Source: Bacilli bacterium
GTDB lineage: Bacteria; Bacillota_I; Bacilli_A; RF39; JBKDZI01
Reading direction: 5' to 3'
DNA length: 64,000 nt
Assembly (NCBI GenBank): GCA_047971215.1
Contig: JBKDZI010000025.1
Span: 8,704-72,703, forward strand
In this document: positions 2,986 through 61,662 of the stretch, piece after piece
Layout of the letters: each line of letters begins with the position of its first letter
Numbering within the stretch: the stretch's first letter is position 1
Translations under genes and position numbers: made by a program
The notes under the pieces: model-generated
Told to the model about the DNA's origin: nothing
Seen by the model: only the letters and a program-made list of their open reading frames with translations
Database searches by the model: none

Positions 2986-3120
2986 TAAGGTCTAAACTCT
3001 ACTATACTTAAACAAACCCTTATAGATAAAGGTTTTAGAGTTAATGAACATAAGTTAAACACTCTATCGTACGTAGAATGTACGTAGAAAAAGAAAAAAA
3101 GCACTAAAAGTGCAATAAAT

Positions 3121-3162
3121 GGGACGTTAGCTCAGTTGGTAGAGCAACTGACTCTTAATCGG
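3121..3162 (+). pseudogene. Truncated tRNA-Lys 5'-half copy
   Basis: GGGACGTTAGCTCAGTTGGTAGAGCAACTGACTCTTAATCGG is near-identical to the 5' exon of the downstream tRNA-Lys plus the first 4 nt of exon 2. It has no 3' half. Confidence 0.65.
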
Positions 3163-3305: not shown

Positions 3306-3647
3306 GGACTGTTAGCTCAGTTGGTAGAGCAACTGACTCTTGGTAATCACACTGGGAGTGTATCATAGTAATATGATAATGAAAATCGAGCAAAAACGGT
3401 AAACGCTGAAATGCTAATACCGTGCTAACTTAATAGATAACGATAAGGCTATTAAGCAGTGTAACGCATAGGAACTGAATAAATATAATGTTCCCACGAA
3501 TGCTTGACAACCTACTTTATAATAAAGGGTTGATAATGTATGCTGAACTATATAGAACAACAATATATAGATGTATCGGATAAAAAGCCAATACGATAAC
3601 AAAATGTAATCAGTGGGTCTGGAGTTCGAGCCTCCAACAGTCCACCA
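3306..3647 (+). tRNA. tRNA-Lys(CUU) interrupted in the anticodon loop by an intron of about 266 nt. The exons are 3306..3340 and 3607..3647, with CCA encoded.
   Basis: The 5' exon is GGACTGT TA GCTC AGTTGGTA GAGC A ACTGA CTCT. The 3' exon is TAA TCAGT GGGTC TGGAG TTCGAGC CTCCA ACAGTCC A CCA. Acceptor, D, anticodon (ACTGA/TCAGT) and T stems all pair. The spliced anticodon loop is CTCTTAA. Confidence 0.8.
3341..3606 (+). ncRNA. Putative group I intron in tRNA-Lys
   Basis: The 5' exon ends in U, which can pair with G in a P1 helix (exon ACUCU with intron GGAGU at intron nt 15-19). The intron ends in G before exon 2. The size of about 266 nt is typical of bacterial tRNA group I introns. No long internal ORF is present; the 62-aa track ORF on the minus strand is spurious. 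Confidence 0.55.
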
Positions 3648-3725
3648 TGAAGTAATTTAAGGGCTACTAGCAATAGTACTCTTTTTTAGTGTTATAATTA
3701 TATTGCTCCGACATTAGTAAATGTC

Positions 3726-18253: not shown

Positions 18254-18541
18254 TTAAAAATATTCTATATTTTTATAATTACTAACTTGATATATTGAAG
18301 GAAGAGAAAATACATTATTTATATCATATATTTCAATAATTACTGTTTTTTCTTTAGAAGTTTTTTCAAGTACATATACTAAATTATCTTCAACATCACG
18401 AACAAAATGAGTTTGAATTTGATTTGTTCTTGGATTTTGTAGTAACTTTGGATCTGTTAAACTATAACCATTAACAAATATTTGACCTAATAAATAACCA
18501 TTTAAATCTTTATATTTTTTAAATTCAACTATTTTTTTCAT
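18254..18541 (-). CDS. Hypothetical protein
   Basis: This is a 95-aa ORF with no recognisable motifs. It lies adjacent to the tRNA-Cys locus. Confidence 0.25.
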   Translation of the reverse strand: MKKIVEFKKYKDLNGYLLGQIFVNGYSLTDPKLLQNPRTNQIQTHFVRDVEDNLVYVLEKTSKEKTVIIEIYDINNVFSLPSIYQVSNYKNIEYF

Positions 18542-18746
18542 AAATTCCTCCCTCTAAATCAGTAAATATTATAATATCTTATCATTATAGAAGAAAAAAT
18601 GCAATAGGTTTTATGAAAAAAGGTGTAAAAATTTATGTAAACTTAATTAATATCGTTGAAATTTAAATTATTATATATTTTCAAATAAAAAAACAATTAC
18701 ATATAATTATTTTATATAAATAAGCTTTTTATGCTTTTTTTCATTT

Positions 18747-18812
18747 TGGAGGGCCTAGCCGGATTTGAACCAGCGATCAGGGAGTTGCAGTTTTAGCCTC
18801 TGACCTTCATTA
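18747..18812 (-). pseudogene. Degenerate tRNA-Cys-like 3' fragment (anticodon loop, T-arm, acceptor 3' strand, CCA)
   Basis: The reverse complement ...GGCTAAAACTGCAACTCCCTGATCGCTGGTTCAAATCCGGCTAGGCCCTCCA aligns with tRNA-Cys at 18988..19062 (CTGCAAC loop, TTCAAATCC, GGCCCTCCA). It lacks a pairing anticodon stem and a 5' acceptor strand. Confidence 0.5.
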
Positions 18813-18987
18813 TCCGTCTTTGCCTTTGTTTACTTGATATTAGTTAATTTAAAGTTTCATTGAACATCATTAAATTGTATTAAAACTCATTGGTTTGTGA
18901 CATATTTAGTGACACTAATGCTTTTCTAAGTATCTAATTTATTAAATTATCGATACAGTTTTGTATCGACATATTATAATCAAAAAT

Positions 18988-19062
18988 TGGAGGGCCCGAT
19001 AGGATTTGAACCTACGCGTCGAAGAGTTGCAGTCTTCTGCCTTACCACTTGGCTACGGACCC
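18988..19062 (-). tRNA. tRNA-Cys(GCA)
   Basis: The reverse complement is GGGTCCG TA GCCAAGTGGTAAGGC A GAAGA CTGCAAC TCTTC GACGC GTAGG TTCAAAT CCTAT CGGGCCC T CCA. All four stems pair. Confidence 0.9.
19026..19055. repeat. 30-bp direct repeat (tRNA-Cys D-arm/anticodon region), left copy; the partner is at 28443..28472 (29/30 identical)
   Basis: GTTGCAGTCTTCTGCCTTACCACTTGGCTA versus GTTGCAGTCTTGTGCCTTACCACTTGGCTA. The pair brackets a roughly 9.4-kb block that carries integrase and recombinase genes. Confidence 0.7.
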
Positions 19063-19249
19063 ATTTTATATATTATATGTGATAAGATAGATTTCTTTCA
19101 CTTAATATATTATAACTTTTTTCCTAAATTTAGTCAATTGATATGGCTAAATTTCTACAATTTCCAATACATTCAATGTTTATCAATTTTTTATATATTA
19201 ATTCAGTATAGAAAATTATTTCTTCAACTAAAGTGCTAGACCATTTATA

Positions 19250-19800
19250 GTCAAGCCTAACAAGCGGTTTCTTGTAGCCATGAAGTCTTGTAATAATACT
19301 AATAATAACATAGACAATAAGAATTACTATTTTTTAATAGAAACAGACAATTCAAATAGAGATTACATTAAAACCACTGGTTTTAATGAGAAAAACCGGG
19401 CAGAGAGACCATTCCGGTTTTGAAAAGAACTGGTTATTAAGTTAGTTAATGTATTATCTAAAAACTTTTAAGTGCTTTCAGCCAATGTGGTGGTTGTTTG
19501 AGATGCTTGGAATACCTTTAAATAGGAGTTCAAAAGTTTTTAGAGAGGACAGTGATTAACTGATATTTTCGATACTTGGTCAAAACGTGTGCCAACATGC
19601 TTATTTATAGTTTTGATGGGTATTTTGCTACACGGTGAAATAAACTCCACAAAGGGAGTTTAAATGGGCAAATAGGGCGGAAATTGAGAAGATTTGTCAC
19701 ACATTTTTCAAATTCCATACTTATTATCTTTAAATTGAAAAGATACGAGTTTAATCGTATCCAGGTCATCAGTTATTATAGTAATTATACTTACATTTCA
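19250..19800. ncRNA. Candidate large structured non-coding RNA (GC-enriched, ORF-free region inside the element)
   Basis: There is no ORF longer than 60 codons on either strand across roughly 550 nt. GC content is clearly higher than in surrounding DNA. Several local hairpins are visible (for example AAAACCGGG...CCGGTTTT). Confidence 0.3.
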
Positions 19801-20184
19801 TTATCGATTTATATTAGGGTTAGTTTCATATAGAATTAACTCTTTATTTTTAGCATAAAATGCCCCAATAGCATTTCTTATGCTATCAAATAAGTCATCT
19901 TCAACATGAATTGGTTCTAATCCTTGCCCTGCTGCTTTGATTTTTTGTAAGACTTGTTTTTGTTCTTCTTTAGAAATAGCATCACTATTACATAAATTAC
20001 TATTTAAGAAGTCACAAAAGTATTCAAAGTCACTATCCCAATTTATATTTCCGTTATCTTGTGCTTCCCAAGCCAATTTTTCAATTTGTCTTAGTAACTC
20101 GCCTTGTAAATTATCTGCTTGTCCGCTTTTGGGTATAAGATTGTTCCATATATATTTGCATTCTTTAGCATATTTATATGCCAT
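19801..20184 (-). CDS. Hypothetical protein (element cargo)
   Basis: The frame is 127 aa from MAYKYAKE, with a GGAG RBS. The track ORF starts within the RBS. Confidence 0.35.
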   Translation of the reverse strand: MAYKYAKECKYIWNNLIPKSGQADNLQGELLRQIEKLAWEAQDNGNINWDSDFEYFCDFLNSNLCNSDAISKEEQKQVLQKIKAAGQGLEPIHVEDDLFDSIRNAIGAFYAKNKELILYETNPNINR

Positions 20185-20239
20185 AATATCACTCTCCATT
20201 TCTATTTTAACATATTTTTATAATTATTAATTCTATTAT

Positions 20240-20659
20240 TTAGGACAATTCATTAGGTCTAATACTCTCTATTGAAATCAAATCTTTATCATCAAAGATA
20301 AGTTTAAATACTTCTGGTGCATTAAATGGGTTCTCAAAAATCGTTTTATTTTTAAAATCTCTCGGTAATTCATCATAAGAATTAACTCCATGCGATCTTT
20401 CTCCAAAATCTTCATCAATTAAAATATCTAAATCATTTTTATTAGCAATATATTTAGCTGTTGAAATTGTTCTAACATAATTACTTGAAATAACACAATC
20501 AATATTATTAAACTCTTGTAATTCACTTAATATTTTAGCTCTTTCTTCTCCTAAAACCAATAATATATCTTTTTCATTTCTTAATTGAGGTGAATCATTT
20601 TAATTTAGTTTTTAATCTTTAAAGGTTTAGAATGTCTAATAAAATATATTGTAGTCATA
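20240..20659 (-). pseudogene. Histidine phosphatase (phosphoglycerate mutase-like) family gene disrupted by a frameshift/stop
   Basis: The N-terminal piece MTTIYFIRHSKP (RHG-type motif) terminates after 17 codons. The remaining 106 aa continue in another frame. Confidence 0.5.
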
Positions 20660-20673
20660 AATTAATCGACACC

Positions 20674-22543
20674 TCACATTCTACGCTTATTACTTTGTTC
20701 TTCATAAAAATTAGAATCATTATCTGCCATTTGATTTTGCTGTTCTAATTCCATTCTTTTTTGAACTTCTAGTAAATCAAGTTTAGCAGTCTTTAATAGT
20801 TCGATTTCTTGATTAACAACTTTAGATGGTAAAACCTTTTGAGAAGTATCAGATATAATTTTGCTTGTTTCTTGCTGTTGAAGTGGAAGTAATCTTACTT
20901 GTGATGATATTACATCAAAGCATTTATCATGCTCAAAAAAGGGGATATCTATATATAAATCATTATCACTTTCTCTTACTTTCGCCCCAGATTTTTTAGC
21001 TTCTTTAATTATAGCCTTTTGTATTTCACAAGGAATATTATTCTTAGAAAAAGAAAAATATCCACCATTAGTATCGTGTCCTGCACAGGCTCCAGTAGAA
21101 GTTAATCCTCTTTGAGCAAAACTACTCAATAGGTTTTCAAGAGAAGGTAAATCCTCTGAAAATTCTCGTATTGCTAGTTGTCTTTCATTTTCATCTAATT
21201 TACTTATATCTACATTTGGCTTTCCCTTTGCATAAGAATTTTTCTCATACCTACTTGAAAAGTCAAGCCTGTCTGTAATTTGAGAAGCATCAATTTGAGA
21301 AACAATTTTTATCTCATCTTTAGTTGCAACAATATAATTATTCTCGGTAGTTTGACAGATAAATTCACCATTTTTTGTTTTATGGATATTTTCAAAGCCA
21401 ATATCTGAATGAACTGTTTGTTCTTTATCGCCCCATTGAAAAGTTATATCATGCAATTTCGGGGCAAAACTAGGATCGGAGAGTGGAATTGAATAATTTT
21501 CAATGTGTTCAATAGTGCTTGGAAGTGTCAGTTTTTCTAGAGTAGGTGTAAACATAAGTGCAAATTGTTCTAATTGTAAAACTCCACTAGGAACTCTTAA
21601 ACTTTTTATTCCTCTGCACTTTTTCTTTTTGCATATCAATTTGACATATAGCATTTGTGTTTACCATTCCTAAATCTATACTAACAGCTTTACCGCTTGT
21701 GGATTTAATAATCGTTTGGGAATTCTGAAATGATATTTCAGCAAAATCTCCCCTACGAATTTGAAAAGTATATGGAATACCATTATGCGTCTTTTTAATG
21801 GTTAAAATACTATTTTCCTGTGCTTCAAAAACTCCATTTGATCCATCATATTTGCTATTACCTCTTTTACTACTGCCTGAGCGAGCTTCCAGTGATGTTT
21901 GAAATGGCACTTTAAAACTATCTGGCAATTCTACATATTCTAAACCATTTAGATTACGAAAAGCATTATTTCCAGATTTTTCGACTCCTTCATGTAATAT
22001 TAAAGTCTTTATATTCTTACATTGATTTATAAAATTAGATGGTAATTCTTTTATTGAACCAGCTACTTCAACACGAATTAAATTTGTATCGTGCGATGCA
22101 TACATATTACCTAAAGATTTGATATTATTTCCAAGTACGAGATTTTGAACTTCTGGATACATACCAGTTCCTAAATATTCAATAGTGACAGGTAAATTAT
22201 ATTGTGTTCTTGTTGAGTCAAGAGAATTATTTCCTAAAGTTTTAATACCATTAGGTAATGTTACTTTTTTTAGATTAGAGAAAGCCGCTTCGAAAGTAAA
22301 ATATCCATCTGGAATTTTTGTTATACTTCCATCTCCAAAATTTATTTCAGTTGCTCCAGACATACCCGCCAAAGCTTTGTTAGCAATCATATTAAGGTTC
22401 GGATCAAGCTGCTTAACTTCTTTTGGAATATTATAAACTTGTAATCCTTTAGGAACATCAACTAACATTCCAGTCAATTGATCTATAATATATCCATTAA
22501 TATCTTTTAATTGTTGTTTTGGTTTTCTATCAAATATTCCCAT
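20674..22543 (-). pseudogene. BspA-type leucine-rich-repeat surface-like protein, split into two overlapping ORFs (21587..22543 and 20674..21654)
   Basis: The upstream ORF carries LRR_5-like repeats (NIKSLGNxxF...LxxVxLPxSIxxIG pattern). The two ORFs overlap by 68 nt in different frames, consistent with a frameshift in a T-rich stretch. Confidence 0.4.
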
Positions 22544-22717
22544 TTTTTCACCTACTAATTCCTTTAAATTTGTGCATAATCATTTGTTGCTAGATAATCT
22601 ATTATTAGTATATCATTATTTTGGTTTTTTTCTCCCTATTTAACAAGCATTTTACTAAAAATTATGTAAAACGTTTGTAGTAAATTTATATATTTAAATA
22701 GTTATTGAGGAGTTGCT

Positions 22718-23383
22718 ATGAACGAACTATATGAGGCTGTAGAAAAATGTTTTTCTAATGATGTTGTTTTGGCCGATATTGAGAAGACTTTGAGAAACGA
22801 GTTTCTTGCTGCTAAAGCAAGATACAAACGAGTCCAAGATTATCCAGTAATTGCTAGTAATTATATGGATCATATCACTTCTAAGACTGATTTATCCAAA
22901 CTAAACAAAAGAAAAGATGTTTTAGCTTTTAGGATTGTATTTGAGAATGGCGAAGAAATTTATCTTGATAAGAATGTTGTTGATAATTGGTTTTTTGATG
23001 GAGTAAATGATTCAGAAGATGCTGATGATACTATTTATGATGCTTCTGGAGTTGACATTATAAGAAAGGGTTTAGTTTTTAAGGAGGGCTTTTTGAAGTT
23101 GAAATTATCTATTTTAAGTCATTTATATACAGTTGATGGTATTGAAAGTGGACAGATTGATCCTAATGCAATTGATAGATTAACTGAAAAGATGGATATA
23201 ACTCATATTCTTCTTAAACTAGATAAAGATTCTCCGAGTGAACTTTCATTATTAGTCCCTTATGTTGATAGAACTGATTGCCCACCTATTAGTCTCACTA
23301 TTCCAGCTGTTTTCGAGAACAAGTCCCAGTTTATTACTTATGATGATGATTACTTGTATATTCAGTGGTTAATTTTAAAATAA
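22718..23383 (+). CDS. Hypothetical protein (element cargo)
   Basis: This 221-aa ORF has no recognisable motif. Confidence 0.3.
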   Translation: MNELYEAVEKCFSNDVVLADIEKTLRNEFLAAKARYKRVQDYPVIASNYMDHITSKTDLSKLNKRKDVLAFRIVFENGEEIYLDKNVVDNWFFDGVNDSEDADDTIYDASGVDIIRKGLVFKEGFLKLKLSILSHLYTVDGIESGQIDPNAIDRLTEKMDITHILLKLDKDSPSELSLLVPYVDRTDCPPISLTIPAVFENKSQFITYDDDYLYIQWLILK

Positions 23384-23675
23384 GTTGAAAGGAAGCTGTA
23401 ATTATTGCTTAATCATGGTTAAACATAGATAGAGGTAATTTAATGCCTAATCAAGTGGTTACTACTGGTAATTGAGTTAGATATAAGACTCATTGATAAA
23501 GGGTTCAATTATTGCTCTTATTTTTTTACCTAAGGGTGTCAAATTAAACAATTGATTAAATAGACATTGGTAATTAGAGTCAATACTTGGTGATTAAGGT
23601 GTTAAAAGTGCTTCATTAGTCTAATTATTAAAAAAGATGATTGATTAGACACTTAGGAGAAAGGATGGATTTTAT

Positions 23676-24278
23676 ATGTTTGTAGAGACTGGCACTGAAT
23701 ACGGATATGCGAGAGTATCCACTAATAGGCAAGATGGGGCTTATGAGATGACTGCTTTACTAAATGCAGGAGTCAAGCAGTCAAATATTTTCTTTGAAAA
23801 AGAAAGTGGTAGTAATGAATCTAGAGAAAAGTTTAATGAATTACTTGGAATAGTTAAAGCTGGTGACACGATTCGTTCTACTGAGATTACTCGTATTGCT
23901 AGAAATATGCGCAACCTTATAGATATTGTGGAGCTTACAAATAAATTAAAACTTAGGCTTATTATAGGTAACTTAGTTGTTGATTGTAGAACCGATGAAT
24001 TAGATCCTATTACTGAAGTTACTTTATTAGTAATTGGTATGTTTGGGATGTTCGATTTAAAGATGAAGAAGCATCAAATTATGCTTGGGCTTGAGAATGC
24101 TGTTGCTTCTGGCAATAAATTAGGTAGAAAGTTTAAAACTAAAGATGATATTGATGAGAAGTTTTATAAATACTACTCGCAATACAAAAATAATCAAATA
24201 AATCTAACTGAATTATCTAAACTCTCTGGAGTATGCAGACAGACTTGTTATAATTTGATTGATCTTATTGAAAGTTAA
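23676..24278 (+). CDS. Serine recombinase (resolvase/invertase family)
   Basis: The N-terminal catalytic motif YGYARVSTNRQD contains the active-site serine. The length of about 200 aa, with a C-terminal HTH, fits the family. Confidence 0.75.
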   Translation: MFVETGTEYGYARVSTNRQDGAYEMTALLNAGVKQSNIFFEKESGSNESREKFNELLGIVKAGDTIRSTEITRIARNMRNLIDIVELTNKLKLRLIIGNLVVDCRTDELDPITEVTLLVIGMFGMFDLKMKKHQIMLGLENAVASGNKLGRKFKTKDDIDEKFYKYYSQYKNNQINLTELSKLSGVCRQTCYNLIDLIES

Positions 24279-24324
24279 AAGAAGTTACTCATTTGTGAGT
24301 AGCTTCTTTTTTCTTTTATAATAT

Positions 24325-24984
24325 TTAATCTACATCATAATATGTTGCATTATCATATAGGATTCTTCTAAGAGTGAAGGTATCGTCATCGATTTTGGGG
24401 AACTTTTCTTTAATCATATTAATAATTTTATCCTTATCTCTAGTATATTTACTAAATTCTTCATCATAAAAGCTAGCGATTTCTTCTTTATTCGCCCAAA
24501 GCCAAGAATTATCGTTATTCATTTGTTTTATTGTTCTATTTACTGAATCTTTTGTATGACATTTAATATAACGACCATTAACTTTTTTAAAATTATATTT
24601 TCTAAAAAAATAACCTATTCGATTTGAACTTATATCAGTATCAAATAACTCTTTTATTTTTTTTGCTGCTTCTTTATGTGTAGTTATATTATTTTTCTTA
24701 AAAACTTTTCCTATTTCATATTCATACTCTAGGAGCTTAGGAACATTTGTAGGTTTATGCTTTCTTTTCCATATTTTTTTGTTATATTTCGAAACATAGT
24801 ATGATATAGATCTCCTACTGGCACCTGTTTTGTTTGTTATATAAGTTATATCTTTCCCTTCAGAATATAAAAGAAGCACATTACACATTTTTTCTAATCT
24901 TTCATTTTGAGTTCCCCTAAGTGTTTCTTCTAATGACTTTTTTTGATATTCAGTTAATTTAAAATTTCTTCTTGCTTTTCTCAT
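24325..24984 (-). CDS. Hypothetical DNA-binding protein (N-terminal HTH, transposase-like)
   Basis: The frame is 219 aa. The N-terminal region LTEYQKKSLEETLRG...ITYITNKTGASRRSISYYVSKY looks like an HTH. Confidence 0.3.
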   Translation of the reverse strand: MRKARRNFKLTEYQKKSLEETLRGTQNERLEKMCNVLLLYSEGKDITYITNKTGASRRSISYYVSKYNKKIWKRKHKPTNVPKLLEYEYEIGKVFKKNNITTHKEAAKKIKELFDTDISSNRIGYFFRKYNFKKVNGRYIKCHTKDSVNRTIKQMNNDNSWLWANKEEIASFYDEEFSKYTRDKDKIINMIKEKFPKIDDDTFTLRRILYDNATYYDVD

Positions 24985-25156
24985 ATTTTTTCCTCTAACA
25001 CCAATTATACTTCAAAAACGGATAGCGAGCAATATAATCCGTTTTTTTATGAACTGATTTTCCTCGCTACGGTTTTAACCCTTTATATATAAAGTTCTAC
25101 AAAGGGGTAAAAATATTAAAAAGTTTTTATTTTACTGTGAAAGGAGAAAAACGAAC

Positions 25157-25276
25157 ATGGCAAATCAAATTAACGAACACAGTGGTTGTGGGTCCGGGGC
25201 TCATTATGCCCATTTTGCTCGCTCATGTTTTAGTAGGCATAAGAAATGCCAAACAAAGTTGTTGATGCTCAACTAA
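25157..25276 (+). CDS. Small Cys/His-rich peptide (39 aa), candidate sORF upstream of the RecA-like gene
   Basis: The peptide is MANQINEHSGCGSGAHYAHFARSCFSRHKKCQTKLLMLN. An AAAGGAGA RBS lies 9 nt upstream. Confidence 0.25.
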   Translation: MANQINEHSGCGSGAHYAHFARSCFSRHKKCQTKLLMLN

Positions 25277-25306
25277 AAAGTATCGTTACAGTAAGAGGAG
25301 AATTAA

Positions 25307-26371
25307 ATGAAAAGTAATAAGAAAACTACAGGTGGAACTAGCTTAGCTGATTTGGCTAATTCTCTACCTAACTATTTTAGTGATACTACAATAGTGAAAT
25401 CAGGAATATATTCATTGGATTATTTACTTAAAGGGGGATTACAACTTGGATCATTCATTCAGTTTGTAGCGGAGTCTGGAATTGGAAAATCAACTATCGC
25501 ACTACAAGTTGCTAGTAATCTATGTGAGCAAGGTCATAAGGTTTTATATCTCGATAGCGAGGGTTCAGTAACTAATAAAACGTTGGAATCTACTGGAGTT
25601 TCTAAATATCTTAATAATGGGTTTTATTATGTAAGAGAATCCACTTTTGATAAAGTAGAAAAAAAATTAGATAGATTTATATCAACAAATGAAATATCAG
25701 TTATTATGATTGATTCAATAGCCAATCTAATCAATGAGGGTTTTACTAATTTAAATGATGGTATTTCCATCACAAATAACAATACCAATAATATTAGTGG
25801 CCCATTGGTTAAGTTTATCAATAAATATAAATCAGTAGCTACAAGTTGCAATATCTGTTTCGTGTTAGTAAATCAGTATAGAAATACAATAAACATGAAG
25901 ATAGGAACCCAATTAAAAGAATATGGTTCAAAGAATGTCAGATATGCTTCAGATGTCATTATAAAAATAAACGGGATTAAGTCATTTGGATCAGCAAGAG
26001 ACTTTAAAAATTTAACTAATAGTGCTGATGCAGGGATTGCATTGGAATTAGAAATTGTTAAGAGTAATAAGTCGAGACCTGGTACTATTATGCCTGCTTA
26101 TCTAATTTATGGTAAGGGAATAGACAACATGTGGAATTGGGTTTATGAACTTAAAAAGGCGGATGTCATTAAGCAGGCTGGTAAATATTTCTCTTTAGAT
26201 TATGTGGGGAACCAAATAAAGGAAGATGGTATGCCTAATTTCGTTAGAGCACTAGAAAGCACAGAGTTTAGTGTTGATGACTTTACTAACCTAATGCCAG
26301 TTGGTGATGATTTTGATGGTGAGTTTACTCTTGAATTTTCAACTTCGGCAGATGATGGTGGTGAATTATGA
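25307..26371 (+). CDS. RecA-family recombinase/ATPase (divergent, mobile-element encoded)
   Basis: Walker A is AESGIGKSTIALQ. An L2-like region NQYRNTINMKIGTQLKEYGSKNVRYASDVII parallels RecA NQIRMKIGVMFG...ALKFYASVRLDI. The C-terminal tail is acidic (DDFDGEFTLEFSTSADDGGEL). Confidence 0.7.
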   Translation: MKSNKKTTGGTSLADLANSLPNYFSDTTIVKSGIYSLDYLLKGGLQLGSFIQFVAESGIGKSTIALQVASNLCEQGHKVLYLDSEGSVTNKTLESTGVSKYLNNGFYYVRESTFDKVEKKLDRFISTNEISVIMIDSIANLINEGFTNLNDGISITNNNTNNISGPLVKFINKYKSVATSCNICFVLVNQYRNTINMKIGTQLKEYGSKNVRYASDVIIKINGIKSFGSARDFKNLTNSADAGIALELEIVKSNKSRPGTIMPAYLIYGKGIDNMWNWVYELKKADVIKQAGKYFSLDYVGNQIKEDGMPNFVRALESTEFSVDDFTNLMPVGDDFDGEFTLEFSTSADDGGEL

Positions 26372-27093
26372 GCTATGGTTATTTTAAACCTCAATATGGA
26401 GGTAATTTACAAAAGGGCTCTTTAGAGGGACAATATAAATATCTAAAAAGGATTCCAAACATTAGAGTTTACTATGATCATTATGGAAAAGGTAGTCCTC
26501 ACTTTTCAAATCTGATGAAGAAGTTAAGTGAGGGTGATTCCTTATATGTAACCAATGTAAGAGATTTAGGTAAAACTAATAATGGTGTTTTTACAAACTT
26601 CTTAACACTAAAGTCATTAAAGGTTAATTTATTTATCAATGACAAAAAGATTGATATAGATGGACTCTTTAATGAAATTGATACGATGAAAAAGTTTAAT
26701 TATGCGCATACCAAAGGACAACTCCGAGATATCGACATAGTTGATGCTACCATGCTCAAATATATATATAGTTTTATAGAGAATAAAGGAAAGAAAGTGA
26801 ATTTTGAAAATGTAAATATAGCTGATTTGTTATTAGCACTTGGAGAACAACTTAAAAGTTCTCAAAAACAAAAAGATAGTGCTTCTATTGTTATAAGCAA
26901 GGAACTACTATCTTCAAAGGAAGTATGTGAGTTATATCCATGCTTTACCGATGATAATGCCTTAAGAAAGGCTACAGATAAGGGATTGCCTTATCTGAAA
27001 ACTGGCAGACATAGATTTTATAGAAGAATTGATATTGATGGATGGCTTGATAAACAAATTATTATTGAGGGAAATCAGTTGATGTTTGATTGA
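26368..27093 (+). CDS. Protein with a C-terminal excisionase-type HTH domain (Xis-like)
   Basis: The C-terminal segment LYPCFTDDNALRKATDKGLPYLKTGRHRFYRRIDIDGWL matches the Xis/MerR-type HTH_17 pattern (LPxxKxGRxxxFxxxDIDxWL). It sits immediately upstream of the integrase. Confidence 0.45.
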   Translation: MSYGYFKPQYGGNLQKGSLEGQYKYLKRIPNIRVYYDHYGKGSPHFSNLMKKLSEGDSLYVTNVRDLGKTNNGVFTNFLTLKSLKVNLFINDKKIDIDGLFNEIDTMKKFNYAHTKGQLRDIDIVDATMLKYIYSFIENKGKKVNFENVNIADLLLALGEQLKSSQKQKDSASIVISKELLSSKEVCELYPCFTDDNALRKATDKGLPYLKTGRHRFYRRIDIDGWLDKQIIIEGNQLMFD

Positions 27094-27128
27094 ATATACG
27101 TCACAAATAGAAAAGAAAGGAAGATTTT

Positions 27129-28329
27129 ATGATAAATATTCTAGATACAAAGTATATAAAAGACAAAGGAAACGGAACCTACAGAATTAGGTTTCGTATT
27201 CCTGATGCTTTTGGTAAGAAAAACGATTGGTTCACTAGGCAAATCAAAAATAGCACCATAGAAGATGCTATTCAATTAAGAGATGCTGCTCTAAAAGAAC
27301 TTGCAGAAAAAGGTCAGATTGATAGTACTATGAGAGTAAAGGCTTGTGCTGAACTGTGGATGAATCAAGTAGCTGAAAATATAAATGCAGGTTCTACTAT
27401 TGATGACAAGAAATCTAAACTAACAAATCATATTCTACCATATATGGGTGAAGATAGAATGTGTGATGTTAATCGGGAACGTATTCAAGGGTTAATTAAT
27501 ACTCTTAAGAAGAAAGATTCTCAAAGACATGATAGTAATGGTAAAACAATAAAGTTAAGCTCTACCACTATCAAAAATATTTATAGCATTGTTCGTGCTA
27601 TGTTTGCATGGGCGGCTGATGAAGATATTAACATTATTGAAGTTACACCTTGTAGAAAGATTTATTTACCAGAAGTAGATGAGTATGATAAAGAGGTTTT
27701 TGATACAGAAGAAATAGATAGATTACTTGATGCTATTATTAAGCTTCCTATTCAAAGACAGTGTTTATATTTAATTCCACTGTTTTGTGGTCTTCGTAGA
27801 GGTGAAGTTGCAGGTCTAAGATGGAAAGATATTGATTTTGAACATCAAAAGATTCATATTAGAAAGTCATTATCTATAACAAAATCTAAAGGTACGGAAC
27901 TTAAGAAACCCAAGAGCAAAAAAGACCGAACAACTGGAATGAACGATTGGGTGAAAGATAGTCTTTTGCAGCTCAAGGAGGAGCAGCGGAAATTAAAAAC
28001 ATCAATGGGTAAGTTCTATAAAGATAGTGAAATGGTTTTTACTGATGAATATGGTGGATATTTAACTCCAAATGCTATTATGGAGAAGATTTATAAAGAA
28101 ACATAATTTAAAACATGTAGTTTATCACGGTTTAAGAGCAAGCTATGCGTCTTATCTATATAATCGCGGGATACCAATTAAAGAAATATCCGAATCGCTA
28201 GGTCATAGTAAGACTAGAACAACAGATAAATATTATTTAATAACTGATAGTAATACGAATACCCGTATTTCAGAAGTTACAAATGATTTTAAGAGACCTA
28301 GAACAATAGTGACAACTACCTCTGATTAG
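27129..28329 (+). pseudogene. Tyrosine integrase disrupted by a frameshift (ORFs 27129..28106 and 28072..28329)
   Basis: The first ORF carries the N-terminal SAM-like domain and catalytic Arg (LRRGEVAGLRWKDID). The second ORF carries HGLRASYASYL and LGHSKTRTTDKYY (H-x-x-R and catalytic Tyr). The frame switch lies near ATTATGGAGAAGA, with no homopolymer involved. Confidence 0.8.
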
Positions 28330-28442
28330 AGCAAGGCTTGGGACACTTTTTGTGACATTTTTCATAATAAAAGAGTTTGTTATTTCACAAACCCTTATAA
28401 ACACTAGCTTAAATTGACGCTATCAACAAACATGTCCAATTT

Positions 28443-28490
28443 GTTGCAGTCTTGTGCCTTACCACTTGGCTATAGACTCATTACACCGAT
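28443..28490 (-). pseudogene. tRNA-Cys 5'-half fragment (right att-like repeat of the element)
   Basis: The reverse complement TGAGTCTATAGCCAAGTGGTAAGGCACAAGACTGCAAC matches the D-arm/anticodon part of tRNA-Cys. The acceptor 5' strand diverges. The sequence after the anticodon loop is not tRNA. Confidence 0.65.
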
Positions 28491-33244: not shown

Positions 33245-33293
33245 GGTATTCCTAATTTATTTTTTTATGATACAATTATTTTAGGAGGCTGTT

Positions 33294-33464
33294 ATGAATG
33301 AAAAAGTATTAGAAATCTTAAAAGAAAATAAAGAACCTATGAAGGCTGGGGAAGTAACTGAAAAATTAGGTGTTGATAAAAAAGATATAGATAAAGCAAT
33401 TAAATCTTTAGTAAAAGAAGATTTGGTTGAGAGTCCTAAAAGATGTTTTTATAGTGCTAAATAA
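33294..33464 (+). CDS. Small winged-helix-like protein (56 aa)
   Basis: The protein MNEKVLEILKENKEPMKAGEVTEKLGVDKKDIDKAIKSLVKEDLVESPKRCFYSAK follows a strong AGGAGG RBS. It is below the 60-aa cutoff of the ORF track. Confidence 0.35.
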   Translation: MNEKVLEILKENKEPMKAGEVTEKLGVDKKDIDKAIKSLVKEDLVESPKRCFYSAK

Positions 33465-33519
33465 AGTAAATATTAATTTTTATAGACAAATTTGTAATAT
33501 TATGATATGCTTAGATTGG

Positions 33520-33606
33520 ACTTATTATAGTCTAAAATTACATACTGTGTTAAAATAAGCGTAAGCTTAAAGATTTAGGAAAAGCACATGTGCTTTTCCT
33601 TTTTTA
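33520..33606 (+). ncRNA. tracrRNA-like RNA of a degenerate type II CRISPR-Cas locus
   Basis: The anti-repeat TAGTCTAAAATTACATAC (33529..33546) is perfectly complementary to 18 nt of the orphan repeat at 33995..34030. The downstream GTTAAAATAAGCGTAAGC resembles the conserved AAGTTAAAATAAGGC nexus of type II-A tracrRNAs. It ends in the intrinsic terminator AGGAAAAGCACATGTGCTTTTCCTTTTTT. Confidence 0.5.
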
Positions 33607-33667
33607 ATTGCCAAAATTGAAAACCTAAAACTGTATGTTATAATCAAATCAGATTGAGAGGAAAATT

Positions 33668-33982
33668 ATGGAAAAATATACTTTAGCATTAGATATAGGT
33701 ACAACCTCAGTTGGATGGACTGTTATAAATGACAAGTTAGAAATTTCAACATTTAATGAAAAAAATCTTTGGGGTGTAAGATTATTTGATTCTGCTTCCA
33801 CTGCAGAAGTTAGAAGAACTCAACGTGGGTCAAGACGTAGATATTTAAGACGACGTAGAAGATTGGAATTATTGCAATATTTATTTCAAATGGAAATGAA
33901 TAAAATAGATACTAATTTTTTTGATATTACTGTTGAAAATGATAAATGGCTTAAAAATAAACGCTTTATCGCATGCTTGTAA
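33668..33982 (+). pseudogene. cas9: Cas9 N-terminal stub (RuvC-I motif plus arginine-rich bridge helix, 104 aa)
   Basis: MEKYTLALDIGTTSVGWTVIND parallels Cas9 [23 protein letters not shown], with the catalytic Asp conserved. RRTQRGSRRRYLRRRRRLELLQYLFQMEMNKIDTNFF parallels [36 protein letters not shown]. The ORF stops after about 100 residues, directly before a CRISPR repeat. Confidence 0.75.
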
Positions 33983-33994
33983 GAAATTACTTGT

Positions 33995-34030
33995 TTTAGA
34001 AGTATGTAATTTTAGACTAGGTGGAAATGA
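33995..34030 (+). CRISPR. Single orphan CRISPR repeat (type II-like, GTTTTAG... start), the remnant of an array
   Basis: GTTTTAGAAGTATGTAATTTTAGACTAGGTGGAAAT is complementary to the tracrRNA anti-repeat 465 nt upstream. No convincing second repeat follows. Confidence 0.45.
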
Positions 34031-34192
34031 AATAGAAGAAATTATTTCATAAAATAAAAATTTAGAACTAAAACTTATGGCTAAGAAAATATTTCTATAT
34101 TAAAGATTTAATATGCCAAATTTTACAATAAATGTGTATACAAGAGTTTTAATACTTTATAAAATAAAGAATTATGATATATTTGTATTAAG

Positions 34193-56437: not shown

Positions 56438-57287
56438 AAATACAAGAAAATTTATAATAATTTATGAATTTTTTAAGAGAATTTCACAATTACCAGTAAC
56501 GAAATTTCTACCTGGTCATATGGCATTTTCTTTAACTTTATCAATCATTCCACTTTTAACAGCTATATTTGTAATAACATCTGCTTTTTCACTTCAAAAT
56601 AAATATATTTTTGAGTTATTAAATGAAGTATTTGATGAAAAAACTGTAACTTCTTTTCAAAATATGGTACAAGGTGATGGTACTTTTATTAGTTCTATTT
56701 TATTTATTATAATCTCAATATATTTTGCATCAAAAGTTATGAGGTCAGTTATTACAGCTTCAAACTATTTATATGATAGGAGTTATTTAAATTATATTAA
56801 AACACTTTTAAAATCATATTTTTTAACTTTAATTTTATTATTAACTTTTATAATTGGTACTTTTATTCCATTGTTATTAGATGTGTTTTATACAATAATG
56901 AAATCTATTCCATTTTTAGGTAGTTTTTATACAAGCATTGCAGGTTATTTAGATACACTTAACATAATTAAATTACCAATTGTATACATATATATATATT
57001 TTAGTGTTAAAACAATGTATTTAGTAACGCCAACAGGTGGATTAAAAAGTAAAGAAGTAAGAATTGGAGCTATTTTAGTTTCATTCTTTTGGTTAATTAC
57101 AACGTATGGTTATTCATTTTATTTAACTAATATGGCAGATTATAGTGCAGTTTATGGTTCTATTAGTGCAATTATAATATTATTATTATGGATTTATTCA
57201 CTATCATATATTTTTATACTTGGACTTGTAATTAATAATCAAATTAAAGAACAAGGAAGTATATTTAATTTTAAAAAGTACGTATAA
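56424..57287 (+). CDS. YihY/BrkB family membrane protein
   Basis: Six TM helices are present. The family pattern is recognised by eye. Confidence 0.5.
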   Translation: MKKGKNTRKFIIIYEFFKRISQLPVTKFLPGHMAFSLTLSIIPLLTAIFVITSAFSLQNKYIFELLNEVFDEKTVTSFQNMVQGDGTFISSILFIIISIYFASKVMRSVITASNYLYDRSYLNYIKTLLKSYFLTLILLLTFIIGTFIPLLLDVFYTIMKSIPFLGSFYTSIAGYLDTLNIIKLPIVYIYIYFSVKTMYLVTPTGGLKSKEVRIGAILVSFFWLITTYGYSFYLTNMADYSAVYGSISAIIILLLWIYSLSYIFILGLVINNQIKEQGSIFNFKKYV

Positions 57288-60083: not shown

Positions 60084-60422
60084 ATGAACCAAAAAAAGCC
60101 TAAAATTTATACACCACTTACTAATAAATCTTTTAACAATAATATGGAAAACGCTCAAATATTAAATCAACCAAAAGAAGATGAAAACATAGTATTCAAA
60201 AAAGATGAAACTATAGAAGTTCCAAATATAGAAAATATTCAAAATAAAATAGAAAATATTTTAAATTCAGAATATAGTTTTAACGGAATAAGGAGCCTAA
60301 TTACAACTACAAGTGGTACATATCAAAAAAAGATTGCAAAATTAGTATATGATTCTATTATTACAGTTGATGGTGAAATTATACCGATTGAATTTATTTT
60401 AGATATAGAAAAAATGCAATAA
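60084..60422 (+). CDS. Hypothetical protein
   Basis: This is a 112-aa ORF with a GGAGGG RBS. Confidence 0.3.
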   Translation: MNQKKPKIYTPLTNKSFNNNMENAQILNQPKEDENIVFKKDETIEVPNIENIQNKIENILNSEYSFNGIRSLITTTSGTYQKKIAKLVYDSIITVDGEIIPIEFILDIEKMQ

Positions 60423-60474
60423 AATAAATGGACCAAGTGTCTTTTTATTTTATTGCATTTTTAAATTAATTATG

Positions 60475-61662
60475 TTAAAAAGTTCTAATTTTTTTATTTT
60501 CTATTTTGTTTGTCATAGTTTTTTCAACTATTTTTAATAAAGAATTAAGTTGCATAAGTGCTTTTACATCAATATTCAAAAATCTATTTAAGTTCATATA
60601 TTTTTTATATCCATCAACTGATGGATTACGATTAGTTTCTAAATAATACCATTTATTATCATTACTATTATAAATAAAATCAATACCTAAAACTATACCC
60701 TTTGAAGATCCAAAGAGTGGTGCAATTTCTTTACATTGATTGACAATTTCTAGTGGTAAATCAATGTTTTCATTATCAATATTATGAAGTTTTAAAATCA
60801 ATTTATCTGTTTGGCTAATAGTATTTTCATCATTTTTTAATGGTAATACTCTACCACCACTAGATGCATTTGAAATAATATTTTTTGAATTTAAAAAATA
60901 CTGAGAATTTGGATCATTTAAATATTCACATGGATTAAAAATATCAATACCAAAATTTTTAGTTTTATTAATACTTGTTTTATTAGTTGACATTAAAAAT
61001 AATGATGATAATATATCACCTGTGCAAGAAGTAACTACTCTAATAGAAGAGTTAATACCTTCAATTCCAGCAATATATTCTTGAGTGACAAATTCATTTT
61101 TTAGATTAAGTTTTTTACTTTCAGGTAAATCTAATACAGCAATTATTTTTTCTAATTGACTTTGATTTTCAATTAAATATTTATCTTCACCACGATTGGC
61201 AGTGGCATTTTTAAAAATTACTGGAAAAAATGGATTTAAAATATACTCATTTACTGATAAAGTTAAAGGAACTAAAACATTTGAAAAGTTACTTATTTCT
61301 TCTTCAATCAATCCTCTTTTTTTTGATGATCTTCCTAATAAATCAACAATTGGCCCATCGTTTTTATAATCCTTAATATCTGTTATTACAGTGAAGCCTA
61401 ATTTTTGAGCAATAGTATTGAATTTATTCATTATCTCTGATATTTTTATTGTTAGCAATATAGGTATTATTTTTTGTTTTATTAGTTTATATTCATAAGT
61501 AATTTCTTTTAATTCTTTTTCATTATTAGGAACTAAAAGATAAGTTTTTTTATTTAAGCGATATGGAAATTCTTCAACTATTTCATCAGATAAATTTAAA
61601 AATATTGAGGCATCGTTAATATTTTTATTTTTATAATTTTTGACCTTTTGATTTATATTCAT
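60475..61662 (-). CDS. ATP-grasp domain protein (RimK/YheC-YheD-like?)
   Basis: FPVIFKNATANRGEDKYLIEN resembles the ATP-grasp B-loop. The C-terminal ...YYLETNRNPS resembles the Mg-binding E/N motif. Confidence 0.35.
   Translation of the reverse strand: MNINQKVKNYKNKNINDASIFLNLSDEIVEEFPYRLNKKTYLLVPNNEKELKEITYEYKLIKQKIIPILLTIKISEIMNKFNTIAQKLGFTVITDIKDYKNDGPIVDLLGRSSKKRGLIEEEISNFSNVLVPLTLSVNEYILNPFFPVIFKNATANRGEDKYLIENQSQLEKIIAVLDLPESKKLNLKNEFVTQEYIAGIEGINSSIRVVTSCTGDILSSLFLMSTNKTSINKTKNFGIDIFNPCEYLNDPNSQYFLNSKNIISNASSGGRVLPLKNDENTISQTDKLILKLHNIDNENIDLPLEIVNQCKEIAPLFGSSKGIVLGIDFIYNSNDNKWYYLETNRNPSVDGYKKYMNLNRFLNIDVKALMQLNSLLKIVEKTMTNKIENKKIRTF

Follow-up and report, generated by a model that had tools for sequence, protein, structure and literature searches.

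The question raised by this locus is whether a non-coding stretch of DNA beside a tRNA gene encodes a large structured RNA, of the kind represented by the ROOL and GOLLD RNAs, or is a part of the surrounding mobile element without such a role. The stretch occupies positions 19250-19800 of the window, that is, of the whole 64,000-nucleotide piece of DNA that was analysed. A first-pass annotation, made from the letters alone, had proposed a structured RNA on the grounds of GC enrichment, lack of ORFs, multiple hairpins and the neighborhood of a tRNA gene within a mobile element. The strings quoted in it as GC-rich examples, GGGCAGAGAGACC (19398-19410), GCCAATGTGGTGGTTG (19481-19496) and CACGGTGAAATAAACTCCACAAAGGGAG (19630-19657), are found in place, and the stretch is indeed richer in GC than the window (31.8% and 24.1%, respectively), with 33.2% in the part designated here as the core (19351-19739). 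The absence of ORFs above 60 codons also holds, in that start-to-stop ORFs within 19250-19800 do not exceed 54 aa. Stop-to-stop frames there reach a maximum of 63-67 codons with table 11, one open frame of 63 codons lying at 19232-19420, and table 4 (TGA = Trp) yields no gene. In addition, no ORF of the stretch is on record in a collection of 15 billion proteins, and the flanking NCBI locus tags, 02840 and 02850, leave space for just one intervening feature, presumably the tRNA. That tRNA gene, for tRNA-Cys, is adjacent as had been claimed, at 188 nt from the stretch and 289 nt from the start of the core.

The mobile element is described first. The stretch lies inside an integrated island that could be mapped, as the first reading of the sequence had supposed. 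This island, of about 9.4 kb (19026-28449), is shown to be integrated in the anticodon loop of the tRNA-Cys gene, the 5' half of the host gene being displaced to 28443-28482. The features of the island and its left flank are as follows.

18750-18800, minus strand: displaced 3' half of tRNA-Cys, from the anticodon loop CTGCAAC to CCA (alignment A1 and sequence)
18988-19062, minus strand: intact regenerated tRNA-Cys(GCA) (ARAGORN; Rfam, 63.5 bits)
19026-19062, minus strand: island-derived 5' half of tRNA-Cys(GCA) (repeat D17)
19026-19032, plus strand: crossover core GTTGCAG (anticodon loop), left island boundary, repeated at 28443-28449
19109-19137, minus strand: island-borne promoter-like site TTGACT-17-TATAAT, 11/12, pointing at the regenerated tRNA-Cys
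19741-19762, minus strand: intrinsic-terminator-like hairpin and T-tract, outside the candidate, ending the convergent 132-aa gene
19801-20199, minus strand: 132-aa hypothetical protein, with homologues in immunity-protein-like cassettes
20240-22543, minus strand: degraded cargo, a histidine phosphatase fragment (106 aa) and two BspA-type LRR ORFs
23676-24278, plus strand: serine invertase (Pfam, PHROGs, synteny with relatives)
24325-24984, minus strand: non-conserved 219-aa ORF
25307-26371, plus strand: RecA/UvsX-like ATPase (Pfam, PHROGs, synteny with relatives)
26368-27093, plus strand: fused 135-aa/HTH_17 protein (Pfam, PHROGs, synteny with relatives)
27129-28329, plus strand: tyrosine integrase (PF00589), frameshifted near 28072-28106, with the catalytic C-terminus in another frame
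28443-28482, minus strand: displaced host tRNA-Cys 5' half, right island boundary, 36/40 (90%) identical to 19026-19065

Both copies of the tRNA-Cys 5' half stop exactly at the anticodon loop CTGCAAC (GTTGCAG on the plus strand). Relatives of the island were gathered with the integrase alignment A2 against genome contigs (80 loci) and viral contigs and by seven integrase look-ups; the viral contigs gave no relatives. About 25 related islands have the ATPase, the HTH_17 protein and the integrase in common, and most of them also have the invertase; the family loci (L005-L019, L098, L099 and L103) come from gut MAGs whose annotation is Bacilli or Mycoplasmatota. Those relatives that reach the junction end about 115 nt past the integrase stop codon, at GTTGCAG, and the tRNA-Cys 5' half that follows has a host-variable sequence. 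Integration in this family thus takes place at the anticodon loop of tRNA-Cys, and the 5' half of the host gene is moved away by it. Consequently, the island must bring its own 5' half, together with a promoter, at its other end. The same island has also been found beside different host tRNA-Cys 5' halves. In loci L100-L102, which carry integrases of a more remote subfamily (P0133, 46% identity), an intact tRNA-Cys follows the integrase gene after 140 nt and on the same strand, and the att polarity of these loci is opposite to that of the island family in the window.

Such a mode of integration is a minority one, 5' fragments being carried by 159 of the 3919 islands in Islander (PMC4383910), and a tRNA-Cys family which displaces the 5' half and brings its own promoter belongs to it. 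For islands of this type, Islander looks for a full tDNA together with a cognate end fragment that has the same orientation and, being a 5' fragment, lies upstream; here these are 18988-19062 and 28443-28482, both on the minus strand. It also looks for a tyrosine integrase gene inside an interval of 2-200 kb, which here measures 9.4 kb (PMC4383910). The likeness extends to the tyrosine integrase, the regenerated tRNA gene, the crossover in the anticodon loop, the size of 9.4 kb, and the shared orientation of tRNA gene and fragment. The integrase of the window's island differs in being frameshifted, and the likeness concerns the carrier, not the candidate RNA. In this arrangement, the stretch is the non-coding, tRNA-proximal and variable end of a "5'-fragment" island of about 9.4 kb, in which the promoter at 19109-19137 and the new 5' half are supplied by the island, with the core located upstream of that promoter. 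On the other side of the tRNA gene, the displaced 3' half at 18750-18800 is a scar that an earlier integration left behind, and 18750-18987 is probably such a scar, about 190 nt in size, from a previous island on the 3' side of this tRNA-Cys. A pair of GTGACA motifs at 18897 and 18909 resembles the integrase-proximal arm of the family.

The island itself bears signs of decay. The overlapping BspA-type LRR ORFs (20674-22543) are probably one frameshifted gene, and the histidine phosphatase (20240-20560) is truncated; the split LRR ORFs and the phosphatase fragment thus indicate that the island cargo is decaying. Intact homologues of the integrase have 387-399 aa, and an independent Logan contig (L094, SRR30067258) gives the identical truncated product of 325 aa; it is therefore likely that the frameshift is real and that the island is immobile. 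Furthermore, the cargo between 19063 and 23676 is common to no relative, and the related islands are longer, with over 10 kb of sequence upstream of their integrase gene. Degraded surroundings and unshared cargo of this kind are what would be expected if the segment were non-functional island DNA, a lineage-specific leftover in that part of the decaying island where the cargo varies (what is left of ORFan cargo, for instance, or a capture by imprecise excision), whose fold is a statistical accident aided by a few inverted repeats. This explanation is somewhat short of even odds, but no less probable than a functional RNA, and the evidence below bears on it repeatedly.

The composition of the stretch is among that evidence. 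Its GC excess is mostly the composition of the mobile island and is not peculiar to the stretch, because the coding DNA of the island has 30.0% GC, compared with 23.4% for host coding DNA, and a second intergenic spacer of the island (24985-25306) has 33.9%. Moreover, the window contains five ORF-free stretches longer than 850 nt, and hence such stretches are not rare here. Both facts suit a non-functional leftover; against it, the segment has no coding remnant and yet its GC content has not decayed towards the 17-22% of the host spacers.

A recently degraded protein-coding gene was looked for as the refutation that the first-pass annotation had itself named. The neighbours are pseudogenes, the GC content and the positive GC skew resemble those of the plus strand coding DNA of the window, and the 63-codon open frame might be taken for a remnant. 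However, the codon-usage log-odds of the stretch is at best about 5 in any of the six frames, as against 19.4 ± 7.6 for real genes, that is, non-coding throughout, and a codon-position periodicity score which is insensitive to stops lies between −1 and −11, as against +9.8 ± 6.8 for genes. A six-frame Pfam search of the stretch gave nothing at E ≤ 1, phmmer with the 63-aa frame against 1.84 billion representatives gave only low-complexity Asn-rich proteins, and tblastx of the stretch found no match in any of the loci or elsewhere in the window. A degraded gene therefore has no support in the stretch and is very improbable.

Evidence specific to the stretch comes from its predicted secondary structure, in which the claim of multiple hairpins holds beyond chance. 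The plus strand of 19230-19800 has a minimum free energy (MFE) of −143.8 kcal/mol (z −5.05), while the z-score of the minus strand is −2.83. The core has the following predicted elements, all derived from MFE folding of one sequence, a method for which pseudoknots are out of reach.

19351-19739, plus strand: candidate core, a predicted closed five-branch junction with two smaller junctions (MFE, pair probabilities)
19351-19363/19726-19739, plus strand: predicted closing helix of the core
19366-19388, plus strand: predicted hairpin H1
19395-19580, plus strand: predicted domain D2 (186 nt)
19414-19433, plus strand: predicted GAAA-capped hairpin within D2
19435-19565, plus strand: predicted long Y-shaped arm within D2
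19586-19634, plus strand: predicted element H3
19641-19662, plus strand: predicted element H4
19671-19725, plus strand: predicted element H5

The plus strand of the core folds at −108.6 kcal/mol (z −5.30), with none of 100 shuffles as stable, and the minus strand at −68.4 kcal/mol (z −1.79). The centroid structure of the plus strand (−106.2 kcal/mol) is nearly equal to the MFE structure in energy, and the pair probabilities of the model range from 0.7 to 0.99, mostly above 0.8. Among 60 control windows of 571 nt taken from the same 64 kb (mean z −0.8, sd 1.54), the most extreme is one that overlaps the candidate (starting at 19400, z −5.53). Elsewhere, long ORF-free stretches gave less negative values in windows of the same length, down to −3.8 for the region of an intron-bearing tRNA-Lys. 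With windows of 200 nt across the 64 kb (mean z −0.43, sd 1.31; 3.4% below −3), the plus strand values in the region are −4.26, −4.44 and −4.12; the window starting at 19700 gives −5.49 but takes in the terminator hairpin of the neighbouring gene. Judged by these local controls, the modelled fold of the core exceeds chance, and its many G-U pairs make it specific to one strand. Z-scores computed from the MFE of one sequence are weak evidence when taken alone; nevertheless, a z-score of about −5.3, the strong strand asymmetry and the extreme position among 60 local controls count against an accidental fold in leftover DNA.

Other strongly negative values for 200-nt windows are found at 26801-27000 on the plus strand (−5.7), within the 241-aa ORF that directly precedes the integrase gene, and at 60401-60600 on the minus strand (−5.2). 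The segment 57201-57770 has fold z-scores of −4.4 and −3.5 on its two strands, and the 571-nt window at 57200 has −4.8 on the minus strand.

A segment so close to an attachment site may also act at the level of DNA, as the distal P' arm of attP, as a packaging or replication site, or as control DNA of the tRNA promoter. In the excised circle the segment would be situated about 0.1-0.7 kb from the attP crossover core; it contains 30-nt inverted arms and an 11-bp perfect palindrome (19366-19388), and its core folded as single-stranded DNA on the plus strand still has a z-score of −3.4. In addition, the motif GTGACA, which is repeated in the conserved integrase-proximal arm, occurs in 12 copies in 64 kb, and five of the 12 are beside att DNA, including the candidate copy at 19695-19701. 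This is, however, the only copy in the candidate and is about 640 nt from the crossover core, iterons and tandem repeats were searched for in the stretch and none found, the element has neither a rolling-circle Rep nor a relaxase, and double-stranded sites do not predict a large strand asymmetry based on G-U pairs. A site of this kind is thus improbable. The nearest known parallel would be the single-strand origins (sso) of rolling-circle plasmids and ICEs, which are non-coding, strand-specific and strongly folded as single strands, properties that the candidate shares in its own strand specificity and single-stranded DNA fold. The candidate differs from them in that the island lacks a Rep or relaxase gene and conserved sso motifs were not identified in it, and it is larger than typical sso elements.

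If the core is an RNA, comparison with known families is the obvious test, and the annotation had proposed ROOL, GOLLD, OLE, HEARO and raiA for it. No family is recognised. With Rfam 15 (4227 models) at gathering thresholds over the whole window, the tRNA alone is matched, and 18500-20300, searched at E ≤ 10 with the filters relaxed, gave noise only (miRNA and snoRNA models, for instance), group I and group II introns and rRNA fragments being absent as well. Among the individual candidates, ROOL RNA (RF03087) has no covariance-model match at gathering thresholds or at E ≤ 10, and matches to GOLLD RNA (RF01998) and raiA RNA (RF03072) are likewise absent. The partners of OLE RNA are genes of ole-associated proteins; OLE (RF01071) has no covariance-model match here, and the candidate lies between a gene for a small hypothetical protein and a tRNA gene. 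HEARO, or IscB omega RNA (RF02033), would be expected beside an IscB/HNH gene; its model has no match, and the island has no gene for an IscB/HNH-type nuclease. The proposal that the core is a diverged member of one of these five families draws on a similar setting (tRNA-adjacent and in a mobile element, in the case of ROOL and GOLLD) and on a size of a few hundred nucleotides. Against the noise obtained with all 4227 models and, for HEARO, the lack of an IscB/HNH gene nearby, it is effectively refuted.

What stands of the comparison is the setting. ROOL and GOLLD occur near tRNA genes and often in prophages (PMC5737381), and the candidate, being non-coding, tRNA-adjacent and inside an integrated element, is found in a location of the kind reported for them (PMC5737381), a setting which is not specific to these families. 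The resemblance includes an ORF-free length of several hundred nucleotides with a multi-branch fold, and a host that is a low-GC gut bacterium annotated as Bacilli. The differences are that the core has about 390 nt, compared with 581 nt for the average ROOL, and that its predicted architecture, one five-branch junction with two smaller junctions, is much simpler and is not a fold of the ROOL type. GOLLD, at about 800 nt, is also longer than the core. Moreover, the candidate lacks a family of homologues, and its carrier is a small island with an integrase, an invertase and a RecA-like ATPase and no recognisable prophage. The candidate belongs to no known RNA family and, if it is a real RNA, would be a new class that is like ROOL and GOLLD in setting only.

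Homologues of the segment were sought in several ways. A blastn search in distant mode of 50,697 phage and 72,556 plasmid records found none at 1e-5, and at E ≤ 10 gave only noise of 25-50 nt. As a positive control, the same search found 62 phage records for the tRNA-Lys intron of the window; therefore, it can detect homologues of structured RNAs from this lineage. Searches of 119 fetched loci by nhmmer, blastn and tblastx gave nothing matching the stretch, two covariance models built on the predicted fold and run on the window and 94 loci (1.42 Mb) gave self matches only, and exact-pattern scans, five of IMG/VR and one of JGI metagenomes, gave only chance seeds, including a coincidence that codes for KWANRA. 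In the sequences recovered from the about 25 related islands no homologue of the segment was found, the tRNA-proximal ends of these islands lying past contig ends or at over 10 kb from the integrase gene and so outside the sequence compared. One relative (L006/L009) has an outward promoter, TCGAAA-16-TGtTATAAT, at the start of its locus, and its first gene begins only about 130 AT-rich nt further on, which suggests, with its tRNA out of view, that it is without a comparable spacer. Because of this short distance in L009, the segment would not be a conserved part of the island end in the family. The lack of homologues in the searched data and the seeming lack of the spacer in this relative speak for a leftover and against a functional RNA.

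Two other origins of the segment were tried and rejected. Linkage to the adjacent 132-aa gene is not borne out, the homologues of that gene being located in unrelated contexts without the segment. A MITE or other non-autonomous transposon would have only a weak, AT-rich pair of 17 nt with 76% identity (19293-19309 and 19772-19788) as its termini, and a second copy is absent from the window and the fetched loci.

Signals for transcription of the core were looked for on the plus strand. No sigma-70-like site of at least 9/12 is found upstream of it, the best promoter-like site by eye being TTCAAC-17-TATAGT near 19223-19251 (8/12), and no plus strand terminator was found for the core. The want of both is again in favour of non-functional DNA.

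Taken together, the observations allow the possibility that 19351-19739 is a functional structured RNA of the plus strand, to which a probability of roughly 0.38 is given. This reading has on its side an extreme, strand-specific and well-defined predicted fold, no trace of coding and a GC content kept at 33%; on the other side are the lack of a family match, of homologues and of a convincing plus strand promoter or terminator, the decaying island (frameshifted integrase and truncated cargo), and the seeming absence of the segment from relative L009. It is preferred only marginally, as the sole reading that has positive evidence specific to the stretch. If it is right, the core would be an orphan structured RNA borne by the island, on the plus strand and divergent from the tRNA promoter, and its function may reside in the fold; by analogy with ROOL and GOLLD, the five-branch junction might bind protein or serve as a scaffold. 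Since the island is decaying, the core may already be a relic. The further proposition, that the core is the first example of a new class of structured RNAs of about 400 nt at the tRNA-proximal end of small islands which exchange both the 5' half and the promoter of tRNA-Cys in uncultured gut bacteria with the annotation Bacilli or Mycoplasmatota, is rather unlikely; transcription of such RNAs would diverge from the tRNA promoter, and, working by means of their fold, they would be functional analogues, not homologues, of ROOL and GOLLD.

A real fold would add another large tRNA-adjacent RNA borne by a mobile element, a small example (about 390 nt) in a compact island of 9 kb and without sequence relation to ROOL or GOLLD, and would suggest that such RNAs have originated repeatedly in mobile elements. 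If it is not real, the locus is a caution, since the GC enrichment is here inherited from the island, and a z-score near −5, which may be all the evidence there is, is insufficient alone.

Elsewhere in the window, a tRNA-Lys(CUU) gene (3306-3650, plus strand) is split in its anticodon loop by an insertion of about 269 nt, the 5' half being 3306-3341 and the 3' half 3611-3650, with a perfectly matching acceptor stem. A P1-like pairing of GGGAGU with the exon sequence ACUCUU, with U-G at the splice site, can be drawn, and the insert can end in G. Furthermore, over 80-86% of its length the insert shares 72-76% identity with sequences in the 62 phage records mentioned above, one of them being the intervening sequence by which the large terminase subunit of Staphylococcus phage SA2 is interrupted. 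On the basis of this pairing and of the similarity to phage intervening sequences, the insert is recognised from its sequence as a group I intron. Both the tRNA-Lys(CUU) and its intron escaped ARAGORN and Rfam (even at E ≤ 1), and the finding is useful for the annotation of this lineage. Two further tRNA-Lys 5' halves are located just upstream (2943-2985 and 3119-3161). In addition, an ORF of 104 aa with a match to the Cas9 bridge helix (PF16593), at about 33668-33982 (929-1243 of L094) within the ORF-free stretch 33245-34192, is possibly a remnant of Cas9.
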